Below, piece after piece: positions 53,590 through 58,162 of a stretch of DNA of 64,000 nt. Each line of letters begins with the position of its first letter. Position 1 is the stretch's first letter. The notes under the pieces were generated by a model, which was given only the letters and a program-made list of their open reading frames with translations, searched no databases and was not told where the DNA came from. A program made the translations under genes and the position numbers. This stretch comes from Escherichia phage BP32. Location: sequence record OR906198.1; one strand, given 5' to 3'.

Positions 53590-54000
53590 ATGAGTATTAA
53601 CGAATATTATGTTTATGCTGGGGATTATGCAAATCCTTCTCATTTTGAAGGTAATTTAATACCTGATAAAGTTTTTAATACTCCTTTTGAAGCGTGGAGT
53701 TGGATTGAAAGCAAAAATGGATTTTCTTACCGTTATGTTGAAGTAACTGATTGGAGAGGAACTAAATATCCTAAAGACCGTTATTACGTAAATCCATCTA
53801 AGGTAAATTTTCTTTTATTCGCAGGTGATAATTATTATCCTTGTGGTGGATATGATGATTTAATTGCGTATGCTGAAACAGAAGATAAACTGCGTGATAT
53901 CATTAAAGAAAATGAAAATAAACCAGAGTATGGTTCCAATCGTTTCGACTGGTGGCAAATCGTAAATGCTCATACTCATGCTATTGTTGATAGAGGTTAA
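53590..54000 (+). CDS. hypothetical protein (136 aa)
   Basis: ORF with ATGA coupling to the previous gene. Confidence 0.55.
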   Translation: MSINEYYVYAGDYANPSHFEGNLIPDKVFNTPFEAWSWIESKNGFSYRYVEVTDWRGTKYPKDRYYVNPSKVNFLLFAGDNYYPCGGYDDLIAYAETEDKLRDIIKENENKPEYGSNRFDWWQIVNAHTHAIVDRG

Positions 54001-54002
54001 TA

Positions 54003-54290
54003 GTGATTCTTTATGCGAAAGTATCGTCCATTGAAAATGGATATAAATATGATCAAGAAGCAGTTAAAGCCTTGATTGATGATTATGGCATTTTAACGTG
54101 TTTTGAAGTTGAAAAGGTTTACATTGACCGTTCATCTTCTCAGGTTAAATTAGTAAAGGAAGACCGTAAATTTAACACAGTTAACTTTGATTTCTTTATT
54201 GAAACAGAAAAAGGTCCTCTTGAATATGATATTTTCAAGAATCCTTTGGGTCTTGAATGCATCGTAAATATGTATCATCATAAATGGTAA
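54003..54290 (+). CDS. hypothetical protein (95 aa)
   Basis: ORF; start codon uncertain (GTG at 54003 or ATG at 54015). Confidence 0.45.
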   Translation: MILYAKVSSIENGYKYDQEAVKALIDDYGILTCFEVEKVYIDRSSSQVKLVKEDRKFNTVNFDFFIETEKGPLEYDIFKNPLGLECIVNMYHHKW

Positions 54291-54400
54291 ATATGCTTTA
54301 AGAATTATTTGTTATTATTAACTCATATCGCACTGATTAATACCCTCTATCATCAAGGGTTCTTGTTAGAGAGCCTTTGTTAATAATTGGGAATTATATT

Positions 54401-55009
54401 ATGGATACTAAATTAGCTGAAATTTTTGAAGGAAAACATCCAAATTTTAGTACAGGAAAGCTGAAAGACAAAATAATAAAAGAAAATATTTTTCCATATG
54501 AGTGTGCAATTTGTAAAATTTCAAAATGGCAAAATAAGCATATTGTTCTGCAATTAGACCATATTGATGGAAATAACAAAAATCATCTTAAATCAAATTT
54601 AAGATTATTATGTCCAAATTGCCATTCGCAAACTGATACTTTTGCTGGTAAAAATATTAAAAATAATAAAAAGCGTTATAATGTTAGTGATGAAGAAATT
54701 TTAAACGCACTATTAAATTCGGCTACTATATCATCTGCAATTACTTCATTAGGTTTAAGTAAAGGCGGAAACTATAAAAGATTCATTAAAATTGCTAATG
54801 ATAATAAATTATATCATTTACTGGTAAATATTAATGAAAAGATTTTAACTGATGAAATTTACGAAGAATTAGTTAAAATCGATTATTCTAAATTTGGATG
54901 GGTTAGTAAAGCTGCTAAAATAATAGGTATAAGCCCACAAAAAGCTAGAAAATGGATAGAACGAAAGTGCCCAGAATTGATAGAACAATCTTTTTCACGT
55001 AATAAATAA
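54401..55009 (+). CDS. HNH homing-endonuclease-like protein
   Basis: CxxC...HIDGNNKNH...N...LCPNCH HNH/zinc-finger motif; lysine-rich C-terminal region; start taken at the ATG (MDTKLAE) rather than the track's TTG. Confidence 0.7.
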   Translation: MDTKLAEIFEGKHPNFSTGKLKDKIIKENIFPYECAICKISKWQNKHIVLQLDHIDGNNKNHLKSNLRLLCPNCHSQTDTFAGKNIKNNKKRYNVSDEEILNALLNSATISSAITSLGLSKGGNYKRFIKIANDNKLYHLLVNINEKILTDEIYEELVKIDYSKFGWVSKAAKIIGISPQKARKWIERKCPELIEQSFSRNK

Positions 55010-55015
55010 TATAGA

Positions 55016-55102
55016 GCGAGAATGGTCAAATTGGTAAAGGCACAGCACTTAAAATGCTGCGGAATGATTTCCTTGTGGGTTCGAGTCCCACTTCTCGCAC
55101 CA
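55016..55102 (+). tRNA. tRNA-Leu (anticodon TAA), type II, CCA encoded
   Basis: Acceptor GCGAGAA/TTCTCGC; anticodon stem CAGCA/TGCTG, loop CTTAAAA; long variable arm; T-loop TTCGAGT. Confidence 0.85.
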
Positions 55103-55107
55103 AATTT

Positions 55108-55181
<74 letters not shown>

Positions 55182-55191
55182 ATTTAATTTA

Positions 55192-55265
55192 CTCCGTGTA
55201 GCTCAGTTTGGTAGAGCGCCTGATTTGGGATCAGGAGGTCCAAGGTTCAAATCCTTGTATGGAGA
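55192..55265 (+). tRNA. tRNA-Pro (anticodon TGG), no encoded CCA
   Basis: Acceptor CTCCGTG/TATGGAG; anticodon loop TTTGGGA; T-loop TTCAAAT; only 2 nt before tRNA-Ser. Confidence 0.8.
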
Positions 55266-55267
55266 CT

Positions 55268-55352
55268 GGAGGCGTGGCAGAGTGGTTTAATGCACCGGTC
55301 TTGAAAACCGGCAGTCGCTCCGGCGACTCATAGGTTCAAATCCTATCGCCTC
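55268..55352 (+). tRNA. tRNA-Ser (anticodon TGA), type II, no encoded CCA
   Basis: Acceptor GGAGGCG/CGCCTCC; anticodon stem CCGGT/ACCGG, loop CTTGAAA; long variable arm. Confidence 0.85.
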
Positions 55353-55359
55353 CGTAATT

Positions 55360-55437
55360 TCGCTGATTTAGCTCAGTAGGTAGAGCAACTCACTTGTAAT
55401 GAGAAGGTCGGCGGTTCGATTCCGTCAATCAGCACCA
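55360..55437 (+). tRNA. tRNA-Thr (anticodon TGT), CCA encoded
   Basis: Acceptor GCTGATT/AATCAGC; anticodon loop CTTGTAA; T-loop TTCGATT. Confidence 0.8.
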
Positions 55438-55438
55438 A

Positions 55439-55515
55439 GGCCCTGTAGCTCAATGGTTAGCAGCAGTCCCCTCATAAGGGAAAGGTTACCAGTTCAAATC
55501 TGGTCTGGGTCACCA
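55439..55515 (+). tRNA. tRNA with CAT anticodon (Ile-lysidine type or Met), CCA encoded
   Basis: Acceptor GGCCCTG/CTGGGTC with one mismatch; anticodon loop CTCATAA; T-loop TTCAAAT; the T4 tRNA at this position is annotated Ile. Confidence 0.7.
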
Positions 55516-55524
55516 AATTAATTA

Positions 55525-55611
55525 GGGGAGTTATCCCGTAGAGGTAGCGGTGTGGACTGTAAATCCATTGTCATTGCGACTCGGGTGGTTCGACTCCACC
55601 ACTCCCCACCA
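55525..55611 (+). tRNA. tRNA-Tyr (anticodon GTA), type II, CCA encoded
   Basis: Acceptor GGGGAGT/ACTCCCC; anticodon stem GTGGA/TCCAT, loop CTGTAAA; long variable arm; T-arm GGTGG-TTCGACT-CCACC. Confidence 0.7.
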
Positions 55612-55657
55612 ATTTATGACTCGTCGTGAGACGCTCAGTTCTTTATTAGGGACTGAT

Positions 55658-56323
55658 ATGCATTTTTATCTTTATAAAATAACAAATAAAATTAATAATA
55701 AAATTTATATTGGTGTGCATTCTACCGAAAATTTAGATGATGGATATATGGGTTCTGGTAAATTATTAAAAAGAGCCCAAGATAAGTATGGTATAGAAAA
55801 TTTTTCTAAAGAAATATTAGAGTATTTTGATGATAAAGAATCTATGCTTGAAGCCGAGAAAAATATTGTCACAGAAGAGTTTTTAAATAGACCAGATGTG
55901 TATAATTTAAAACTTGGCGGTGAAGGTGGATGGGACCATATAAATATTCCTGGGATGCTAAACCAGAAGAAAGATGCTAGCTTAAAAGGAGCTAAATCGT
56001 TTAAATCACGTTTTGAAAATGATATTTTACTTCAAGAAAAATATCGTAAAATTGGTTCAAATGTATTTAAACGTTTGTGGTCAACTCCTGAATACAAGGA
56101 AAAATTTTTAAATAATAGCAGATTTTTAAATAAGCATCATACTCCTGAAACTATTAATAAAATGAAAGAAATTCACGCTAAAAATAATCATCAGAAAGGA
56201 GAAAAGAATTCCCAATTTGGTATGATGTGGATTCATTCATTAGATGAAAAAGTTTCTAAACGTATTAAGAAAACTGACCCAATTCCAGAAGGATGGTTTA
56301 AAGGTCGAAAAATGAAATTTTAA
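55658..56323 (+). CDS. segB: GIY-YIG homing endonuclease (SegB-like) inside the tRNA cluster
   Basis: N-terminal GIY-YIG module YLYKITNKINNKIYIGVHS...GYMGSGKLL; start placed at the ATG (55658) after tRNA-Tyr, not the track's 55550 which overlaps the tRNA. Confidence 0.75.
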   Translation: MHFYLYKITNKINNKIYIGVHSTENLDDGYMGSGKLLKRAQDKYGIENFSKEILEYFDDKESMLEAEKNIVTEEFLNRPDVYNLKLGGEGGWDHINIPGMLNQKKDASLKGAKSFKSRFENDILLQEKYRKIGSNVFKRLWSTPEYKEKFLNNSRFLNKHHTPETINKMKEIHAKNNHQKGEKNSQFGMMWIHSLDEKVSKRIKKTDPIPEGWFKGRKMKF

Positions 56324-56326
56324 TTA

Positions 56327-56402
56327 CGGGGCATAGCTCAGAAGGAAGAGCAAGGACCTTCTAAGTCCTAGGTCGTAGGTTCGATCCCTACTGCCTCGAC
56401 CA
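56327..56402 (+). tRNA. tRNA-Arg (anticodon TCT), CCA encoded
   Basis: Acceptor CGGGGCA/TGCCTCG; anticodon stem AGGAC/GTCCT, loop CTTCTAA; T-loop TTCGATC. Confidence 0.85.
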
Positions 56403-56418
56403 ATTAAGTGAGGAAAAT

Positions 56419-56769
56419 ATGAAAGGTAATGTTTATTTAGTAGTTCATGATTTAACATTCTATTTTAATCACAATGATACTGTTATTTCTGAACGTGTAA
56501 TTAATTTACTTTATCAGCATGCAGATTATGTTTATGTCGAAAACGAATACGGTCATTGGCAATTTCTCAAAAATCGTTCATTTGGTTTAGATGGTTACGA
56601 ATATTTTGAACGTAAAGACCTTTTAGATAAAATTCCGTTATCTACACAATATCAAAATCATAAGTCTTTATATAAATGCCGTCCAATTCGAAATGCTGAA
56701 TCTGCGTATGAAGCAATTGATTTATGGCGTAAACGCCGTGAACAGATTGATGCATTAAAAGAATATTAA
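56419..56769 (+). CDS. hypothetical protein (116 aa)
   Basis: ORF with RBS GAGGAAAA; no recognisable motif. Confidence 0.5.
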   Translation: MKGNVYLVVHDLTFYFNHNDTVISERVINLLYQHADYVYVENEYGHWQFLKNRSFGLDGYEYFERKDLLDKIPLSTQYQNHKSLYKCRPIRNAESAYEAIDLWRKRREQIDALKEY

Positions 56770-57079
56770 GAAGCCGGGTCGCTACCGGTAAGTCGTCGGA
56801 CTGATGTTCCCTGGGTAAGGACTGGCATTAACAAATCTTTACGATCTGTTAATGTCCCCTTACATCACAGCAGAAACGGCGCACCGAATTATCGATTCGA
56901 GGAAATATCTTTGCCGTAAGCCGAGTAGCGTTTTTGACGGAACGTTCGGATATGGTCGAGATATGGCCTTTTAAAATATTGAGTAGCGTCAACTGCTTAA
57001 TAACCGGGTTCGAATCCCGGCGTTTCGTACAAACACTTGCCTTAGCAGGTGGAACCCCGACAAGGTTGCCGCAAGGCTT
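56770..57079 (+). ncRNA. candidate stable small RNA(s), possibly the T4 species 1/2 (rnaC/rnaD) equivalents
   Basis: About 310 nt, GC-richer than surroundings, no convincing ORF; tRNA-like T-arm CCGGG-TTCGAAT-CCCGG; internal repeat GAGTAGCGT; ends at a strong terminator; lies just after tRNA-Arg as in T4. Confidence 0.35.
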
Positions 57080-57107
57080 AGCCCCAGCCGAAAGGTTGGG
57101 GCTTTTT
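57080..57107 (+). terminator. rho-independent terminator agccccagcc-gaaa-ggttggggct followed by TTTTT
   Basis: 10-bp stem, GNRA loop, T-tract read directly. Confidence 0.65.
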
Positions 57108-57240
57108 GATATCTAGGCCTTTCTGGACCTCTCTAGGCATCATTTAGTTTATACCCTTTATAATATATTATCCTATCCTTTAATTGCCCATCCCTGCCCT
57201 AGAATTCCCTAAAACTTTTTAAAAATTTTTTCACAAAACT

Positions 57241-57270
57241 GTTTACACCCTTGTCATTCCATGGTACTAT
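57241..57270 (+). promoter_or_regulatory. T4-type early promoter (GTTTAC-N18-TACTAT) with A/T-rich upstream element
   Basis: Same architecture and flanking words (ttcacaaa..gtttaca..tactat..atcaactactga) as the promoters at 53016 and 53346. Confidence 0.5.
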
Positions 57271-57312
57271 ACAACTATCAACTACTGATACAAAAACAAC
57301 TTGGAGAATGAA

Positions 57313-57576
57313 ATGGATAATTACGGCGAACTGTTCAACTTCTTTATGAAATGCGTTTCAGAAGATTTCGGTCGTACAGTGAATGATATTAAAGTTATCG
57401 GTCCTGATCATCCGATGTTTGAAACTTACGCAGTAATGGGTAATGAAGATGGTCAGTGGTATACTGTAAAGGTTGTGATTAACATGTTCACTGCTGAAGG
57501 TTATGTTAAACTGTCTTCTAAAGTTTACCATGATAACGACGAAATCGCAGAAGAATATTTTAATAATATGAAATAA
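57313..57576 (+). CDS. hypothetical protein (87 aa)
   Basis: ATG with GGAG RBS; the track's TTG start at 57301 is less likely. Confidence 0.55.
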   Translation: MDNYGELFNFFMKCVSEDFGRTVNDIKVIGPDHPMFETYAVMGNEDGQWYTVKVVINMFTAEGYVKLSSKVYHDNDEIAEEYFNNMK

Positions 57577-57606
57577 GTTTACATAGGCTCATGATTGAGA
57601 TATTAT
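57577..57606 (+). promoter_or_regulatory. candidate early promoter (GTTTAC-N18-TATTAT)
   Basis: Read directly upstream of the ORF at 57632. Confidence 0.4.
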
Positions 57607-57631
57607 GAGCCTATAATTTGAGGAAACTGTT

Positions 57632-58162
57632 ATGTCTCTTTATACCGAACTGAATGAAACTTCCGAAAAATCTTTTGATGGTATCTTATCAATAATGCAA
57701 AAGCAGGTATTAGAACAGCTTAGTGAAGCCGCAAGCAACGGACATAAGGCTTGTCGAATCCCAAGCCCACATCGTCGCCTGTATGAACGCCCTCTTATTA
57801 ATTGGCTAGAAAGCGAAGGTCTTACGGTTAAGATTTGTCCTGCCAAATTTGATATCCCACGTATTCTTAATATTTACTGGGATAAACCGATTGAGAAACC
57901 GATTGAGAAAAGTGACCCTTGGGTTGTTAATGTAAAAACATATGATAATGGATGCTCACTTGAGGTGTCTGCTGTAATTAAAGGCACTCACGGTGAAAAA
58001 TCGTGGGGTTGGCCTGGTAAAGATAAAGAAATCGTGTTAAGTGTAAAAGCTACTAGTATTAGTACTCCTATAGCTAAAAGCATTATCGCCGCCGCTGTTG
58101 AAGAAGCTGAACGAATTTGTAAAATTAAAAATAGTTTACATCTCTTAAATAGCATGATATAA
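57632..58162 (+). CDS. hypothetical protein (176 aa) with in-frame KPIEKPIEK tandem repeat
   Basis: ORF with RBS GAGGAAA; 12-bp tandem duplication at 57887-57910. Confidence 0.6.
   Translation: MSLYTELNETSEKSFDGILSIMQKQVLEQLSEAASNGHKACRIPSPHRRLYERPLINWLESEGLTVKICPAKFDIPRILNIYWDKPIEKPIEKSDPWVVNVKTYDNGCSLEVSAVIKGTHGEKSWGWPGKDKEIVLSVKATSISTPIAKSIIAAAVEEAERICKIKNSLHLLNSMI

Follow-up and report, generated by a model that had tools for sequence, protein, structure and literature searches.

A segB-type free-standing homing endonuclease gene in the tRNA cluster of Escherichia phage BP32

The open reading frame (ORF) that splits the tRNA cluster of Escherichia phage BP32 is, almost certainly, the segB gene of a T4-like phage (Tequatrovirus), encoding a free-standing GIY-YIG homing endonuclease. 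The window analyzed here is a 64,000-nt stretch of sequence record OR906198.1; a 3-kb region of it matches about 1005 phage records, mostly T4-like phages of Escherichia and Shigella, and by these matches the window is assigned to Tequatrovirus. The predicted protein shares 97% amino acid identity with T4 SegB and with T6 SegB over 221 of 221 residues, without gaps in the T4 alignment and with only six substitutions relative to the active T4 enzyme. It is 100% identical to a protein from Shigella phage SH-2, and the matching gene is annotated segB in GenBank records. Both the gene and its context have been described before, and we add minor corrections and local detail. segB has been characterized biochemically and genetically since 2008, and a second role was described in 2026 in T6, which has the tRNA-Tyr-segB layout seen in the window. 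The value of the locus lies in a clean annotation, with the correct start codon and the displaced tRNA genes (Asn and His), and in one more case in which modules of a T-even tRNA region have been shuffled around homing endonuclease genes.

A first-pass annotation, made from the sequence alone, had proposed both the SegB identity and an N-terminal GIY-YIG module. The former is borne out by the full-length identity above. As to the latter, the motif it quoted (YLYKITNKINNKIYIGVHS...GYMGSGKLL) is found in the ORF translation, and Pfam places a GIY-YIG domain (PF01541) at residues 3-71 (26.8 bits against a curated cut-off of 22.6, E 6.6e-6). The protein also matches PHROG 314, "homing endonuclease" (E 1.7e-50). 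A phmmer search of PDB sequences with the single protein returned no match at E ≤ 1; a profile made from eight SegB-like proteins (identity to the window protein, 35-57%) recovered the module as well, with the I-TevI catalytic domain (1MK0, 1LN0) as its sole target (E 0.002). Y6, Y17, G19, E67 and N83 are invariant across these eight diverse proteins, and all invariant columns are kept in the window copy. The profile alignment sets Y6, Y17, G19 and N83 on the I-TevI residues Y6, Y17, G19 and N90, with E67 one column off E75; R27 of I-TevI has no invariant counterpart in the SegB-like proteins, its region being an insertion relative to them. Mutation of Y17 and G19 abolishes T6 SegB activity (PMC13096335). 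A single-sequence AlphaFold2 model was unusable (mean pLDDT 37).

The reading frame is open without a break from a GTG at 55550 to the stop codon at 56321-56323, and frameshifts of the kind that would have spoken against the gene are absent. From the internal ATG at 55658 it spans 666 nt, or 221 codons plus the stop. The ORF first reported there is therefore real and intact, but its product has 221 residues and not 222, a figure that includes the stop codon. T4 segB is a 666-bp ORF whose product has been expressed and purified (PMC2330249). We take ATG 55658 as the start because the annotated T4 and T6 starts align with it, a Shine-Dalgarno-like TAGGGA (55647-55652; TAAGGA in T6) lies 5 nt upstream, and no such element precedes a second in-frame ATG at 55616, 4 nt beyond the CCA end of tRNA-Tyr. 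SH-2 SegB also aligns from ATG 55658. The same start had been chosen earlier on the grounds that the longer frame overlaps tRNA-Tyr; the choice stands, but the argument excludes GTG 55550 only, and not ATG 55616.

Two other readings of the ORF itself were weighed. Since GTG 55550 and ATG 55616 are both in frame, with no stop between them and the ORF, the protein might have a longer N-terminus, or the ORF might be encoded by a group I intron within a tRNA gene. GTG 55550, however, falls within tRNA-Tyr, ATG 55616 stands just past the tRNA 3' end with no Shine-Dalgarno element, and the T4 leader is non-homologous (T4 DNA differs from the window upstream of about 55672) though the proteins match from ATG 55658 on. 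Rfam detected no intron family in 54000-58000 at E ≤ 0.01, and the gene is therefore free-standing; the ORF is intergenic, between two complete tRNAs. We give this reading almost no credence. Alternatively, the ORF could be a homing endonuclease gene in decay that no longer gives an active enzyme, given that truncated segB copies keeping about residues 1-117 are known in the relatives RB68, HY01 and ESh31. Against this, the window copy is full length, with few substitutions relative to active T4 SegB and every invariant column kept, and we regard a remnant as very improbable. An intact segB is the preferred reading, which no result contradicts, and the earlier description of a free-standing mobile endonuclease agrees with the lack of an intron, the full SegB identity and the patchy presence of the gene in relatives described below.

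ARAGORN predicts a same-strand array of tRNA-Leu, -Gly, -Pro, -Ser, -Thr, a tRNA with a CAU anticodon and tRNA-Tyr (55016-55611), followed by tRNA-Arg (Table 1). The ORF divides this cluster between tRNA-Tyr and tRNA-Arg, as first described, and its stop codon is separated from the 5' end of tRNA-Arg by 3 nt; a location in the tRNA cluster directly upstream of tRNA-Arg is that of a T4-type SegB orthologue. At the other end of the array, an HNH endonuclease ORF, annotated in ACG-C40 as similar to T5 F-TflIV, occupies the exact place of tRNA-Gln in T4 and T6. Homology to T6 extends about 9 nt into tRNA-Gln (TGGGAATTA) before it breaks off, and restarts at tRNA-Leu, 6 nt past the HNH stop codon. 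The array thus has a different free-standing homing endonuclease gene at either end, the HNH ORF in place of tRNA-Gln and segB likewise in place of tRNA genes. Downstream, tRNA-Arg and the rnaD homologue are separated by ORF116, which is found in ACG-C40, SH-2 and JEP6, is absent from T4 and T6, and accompanies the ACG-C40-type tRNA-Arg allele. The tRNA-Lys call falls inside the homologue of T4 rnaC (species 1 RNA), where Rfam makes no tRNA call, and most likely results from over-calling of a stable, tRNA-like RNA. A conserved terminator-like hairpin follows the rnaD and rnaC homologues.

Table 1. Features of the segB region in the window, with their basis and, where compared, matching bases or homology in T6, T4T and ACG-C40.
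Feature	Position	Strand	Basis or remark	T6	T4T	ACG-C40
HNH endonuclease ORF (202 aa)	54401-55009	+	PHROG 14736, E 6e-124			
tRNA-Thr				66/76	73/76	76/76
tRNA(CAU), annotated tRNA-Ile in T4	55439-55515	+	T6/T4 allele by identity	77/77	74/77	42/77, best local match only
ATTAG microhomology pair	55521-55525 and 56239-56243	+	718 bp apart; same 5-mers and offset in T6			
tRNA-Tyr(GTA), 5' neighbour	55525-55611	+	ARAGORN			
tRNA-Tyr + leader				T6-type (tRNA-Tyr 86/87)	not homologous	tRNA-Tyr 85/87
Cassette (42-nt leader + segB), 706 bp	55616-56321	+	exact identity breakpoints vs ACG-C40			
Leader RNA hairpin, 9 bp, 4-nt loop	55635-55656	+	terminator-like scan; RNA fold			
segB ORF (221 aa + stop)	55658-56323	+	free-standing GIY-YIG homing endonuclease by ORF call, Pfam, PHROG and identity			
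tRNA-Arg(TCT), 3' neighbour	56327-56402	+	ARAGORN; Rfam tRNA, 66.1 bits	38/76	38/76	75/76
ORF116 (116 aa)	56419-56769	+	PHROG 3355; no Pfam match	not homologous	not homologous	96%
rnaD + rnaC homologues	56770-57110	+	95% identical to T4 rnaD + rnaC			
"tRNA-Lys(ttt)" call, 94 nt	56937-57030	+	ARAGORN			
Terminator-like hairpin	57080-57103					

Comparison with ACG-C40 shows what segB has displaced. This phage has the same backbone (HNH gene, tRNAs Leu to Tyr, tRNA-Arg, ORF116 and the rnaD/rnaC homologues) and no segB. Walking along exact identity, the two sequences agree until 55615 and again from 56322, and in place of the window cassette ACG-C40 has a private segment of 264 bp made up of tRNA-Asn, a 114-bp spacer and tRNA-His. 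The gene was originally described as inserted between tRNA-Tyr and tRNA-Arg; that is its location, but it replaces the tRNA-Asn and tRNA-His of segB-less relatives. The comparison with relatives lacking the insertion, suggested at the same time, thus supplied both the breakpoints and a tRNA-Asn target. The tRNA-Asn of ACG-C40 holds GGTTCGAATCCTATCACGTCCGCCAAA, with the GGTTCRANTCC core, the CCAR element and the bases G6, A16, G18, A26 and A27, which are named as marks of the preferred SegB site in T2L tRNA-Asn (PMC2330249). Over 78 nt the tRNA-Asn of T2, RB3, RB14 and RB27 is 100% identical to it, and T2 and RB3 are phages in which the site was mapped. The 27-mer GGTTCGAATCCTATCACGTCCGCCAAA was not found in the window at up to three mismatches. 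The window retains generic T-psi-C cores only, in six tRNA-like genes, and by inspection each of these has at most three of the five discriminating bases; a SegB consensus element (GGTTCGACTCC...CCAA) lies in the T-psi-C arm of tRNA-Tyr. segB DNA occurs in 182 of the ~1005 related phage records, a sporadic distribution. The gene is thus patchy among relatives, with the tRNA-Asn target present in ACG-C40, T2 and RB3 and absent from the window, and a carrier without the preferred target beside non-carriers that have it is the pattern that would be expected of a homing endonuclease gene.

The double-strand breaks that T4 SegB produces have 2-nt 3' overhangs and fall at a site of roughly 27 bp, and segB was inherited at 94-99.6% in crosses of T4 with T2L, in which flanking tRNA markers were co-converted (PMC2330249). 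Site-specific cleavage and super-Mendelian inheritance have been demonstrated for SegB of both T4 (PMC2330249) and T6 (PMC13096335); for the window copy we infer the same from its 97% identity to these two proteins, its activity being predicted from sequence identity only. The window SegB would cut the genome of a segB-less phage at its target, as the T4 and T6 proteins do. During mixed infection, the segB-bearing genome would then serve as the repair template for the cut genome, and repair would copy segB and neighbouring tRNA genes into the recipient, destroying the target. The window would represent the end product of such an event, with segB in place of tRNA-Asn and tRNA-His, the preferred site gone, an upstream tRNA(CAU)-tRNA-Tyr block of T6 type and an otherwise ACG-C40-like region.

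The alleles around segB are mosaic (Table 1). The modules run from the HNH gene through the Leu-Gly-Pro-Ser-Thr tRNAs and a T6-type tRNA(CAU)-Tyr-segB block to the ACG-C40-type tRNA-Arg, ORF116 and rnaD/rnaC. The tRNA(CAU) is unrelated to the tRNA-Met in the same position in ACG-C40, and probably arrived together with segB; co-conversion of upstream tRNAs is read here from five compared genomes, in a phage group that is highly mosaic. The identity shared with T4 and T6 stops at the stop codon (56323) and identity to ACG-C40 begins at 56322, so that the recombination joint falls exactly at the segB stop codon, in a shared 7-nt AATTACG microhomology. These alleles and breakpoints suggest that an ACG-C40-like backbone received a copy of a T6-like block [tRNA(CAU)-tRNA-Tyr-segB], which would agree with the co-converted flanking tRNA markers of the T4 and T2L crosses. 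The junction of segB with the ACG-C40-type tRNA-Arg is not new, being covered by about 21 public records. No public phage record spans 54300-57300 entirely at high identity, the best coverage being that of JEP6 (93% at 95% identity) and SH-2 (87% at 97.7%); every module of this interval is individually known, and together they form a new combination. It is a speculative and rather doubtful proposal that this unrecorded combination is a snapshot of one-sided SegB homing, in which the moving unit is [tRNA(CAU)-tRNA-Tyr-segB]. If true, segB would spread an anti-Septu tRNA-Tyr cassette between phage lineages.

Other relatives show further rearrangement next to segB. In SH-2 (2335-2546 of the compared piece), whose SegB is identical, the Pro-to-Tyr stretch of tRNAs is missing. 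What comes after a Gly-like tRNA there is the final 11 nt of tRNA-Tyr and then the segB leader, an arrangement suggestive of a deletion via recombination between tRNA genes beside segB. The truncated segB-like genes of ESh31 (ON528741.1), RB68 (KM607004.1) and HY01 (NC_027349.1) are 86-88% identical over the part they keep, and ESh31 also keeps an intact tRNA-Asn target. Such truncated copies would fit a decay of the endonuclease gene once it had become fixed or lost its activity.

The Septu connection comes from T6, in which SegB nuclease activity, with UvsX and UvsY, causes a 718-bp unit to be amplified in tandem; the unit consists of tRNA-Tyr and a SegB shortened by 28 amino acids at the C-terminus, and its amplification lets T6 escape Septu, a cleaver of tRNA-Tyr (PMC13096335). 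A capacity of the window unit for such amplification is plausible by analogy: weaker SegB sites in adjacent tRNA genes could permit tandem tRNA-Tyr-segB amplification under tRNA-cleaving defences. Along these lines, segB might be kept mainly as a domesticated anti-defence tool, breaks in nearby tRNA genes amplifying tRNA-Tyr-segB and raising tRNA-Tyr against Septu-type systems. Such a role is compatible with selfish homing, from which it differs only in the selective benefit that maintains the gene. It draws on the T6 experiments (PMC13096335), the tRNA-Tyr-leader-segB architecture shared with T6 (98-100% identity), the consensus element within tRNA-Tyr and the ATTAG pair found 718 bp apart in both phages. 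The window, however, has one tRNA-Tyr and one segB ORF, a single copy without amplification; amplifications are reported to be unstable without selection; and the one microhomology seen for a repeat unit like that of T6 is the ATTAG pair, 5 nt long and weak evidence alone, with none of 7 nt or more. Tandem Repeats Finder saw no amplification either, at a maximum period of 500 that would miss a 718-bp unit. We consider it possible, if somewhat unlikely, that anti-defence is the main benefit.

Expression of segB is probably low. TAGGGA lies in the 3' arm of the leader hairpin, and the fold of 55630-55662 (-10.8 kcal/mol, z -4.2) was not equalled in stability by any of 200 shuffles. In T6 the hairpin is kept despite one base change that turns U-A into U-G, and in T4, whose leader is non-homologous, a stronger one (-19.4 kcal/mol, z -7.8) covers the Shine-Dalgarno sequence and the AUG. 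The T4 hairpin and the presumed restraint of SegB synthesis have already been described (PMC2330249, PMC2988022). The window hairpin is probably a translational brake on segB as well, and two non-homologous leaders that are both predicted to mask the ribosome-binding site would support a functional role. The T4 late-promoter motif TATAAATA was not found upstream of segB, its only copies in the region lying at 54042 and, inside the ORF, at 55939. A sigma-70 promoter scan gave weak 9/12 matches only, 22 against 13.9 ± 3.7 in shuffles and not clearly above them. RNase P cutting at the 5' end of tRNA-Arg would leave the segB message almost without a 3' tail, and the 2008 study of T4 argues similarly on tRNA processing and the segB message (PMC2330249). 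Low SegB levels would then follow from the hairpin over the Shine-Dalgarno element together with tRNA processing of a polycistronic transcript.

Among known systems, T4 SegB (Brok-Volchanskaya et al., 2008; PMC2330249) resembles the window protein in its 221 residues, 97% identity and GIY-YIG N-terminus, and its gene also lies in a tRNA cluster, immediately upstream of a tRNA-Arg, with a leader hairpin over the ribosome-binding site. The position was earlier said to match that of T4 segB. This holds for the cluster and the downstream tRNA-Arg, but T4 segB lies between tRNA-Ile and tRNA-Arg, and the window, with tRNA-Tyr as the upstream neighbour, has the Tyr-segB layout of T6. T4 further differs in its non-homologous leader and first five codons (MFYYT vs MHFYL), in a stronger hairpin that also covers the AUG, and in the downstream tRNA-Arg allele (38/76 matching bases). 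T6 SegB (Chihara et al., 2026; PMC13096335) is likewise 97% identical, and T6 shares the tRNA(CAU)-tRNA-Tyr-leader-segB block (98%; tRNA-Tyr 86/87, tRNA(CAU) 77/77). Unlike the window, T6 is without tRNA-Pro and tRNA-Ser, has tRNA-Gln in place of the HNH gene, and carries a T4-type tRNA-Arg and no ORF116 downstream. I-TevI, the T4 td intron endonuclease (PDB 1MK0, 1LN0), has the same type of catalytic domain, with Y6, Y17, G19 and N90 aligned, and the literature proposes two domains with the DNA-binding part C-terminal; the similarity is distant (profile E 0.002), and I-TevI is intron-encoded and targets td. Escherichia phage vB_EcoM_11B_SA_NWU has a SegB-like gene (301-921 of the compared piece) immediately upstream of the same tRNA-Arg allele as in the window. 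Its last ~38 amino acids are nearly identical, and its DNA is 97% identical from window position 56207 on, whereas overall amino acid identity is 57% and the gene is inserted between tRNA-His and tRNA-Arg, with tRNA-Asn and tRNA-His kept. By this pattern of identity, it is apparently a mosaic endonuclease gene in which the N-terminal part has been exchanged.
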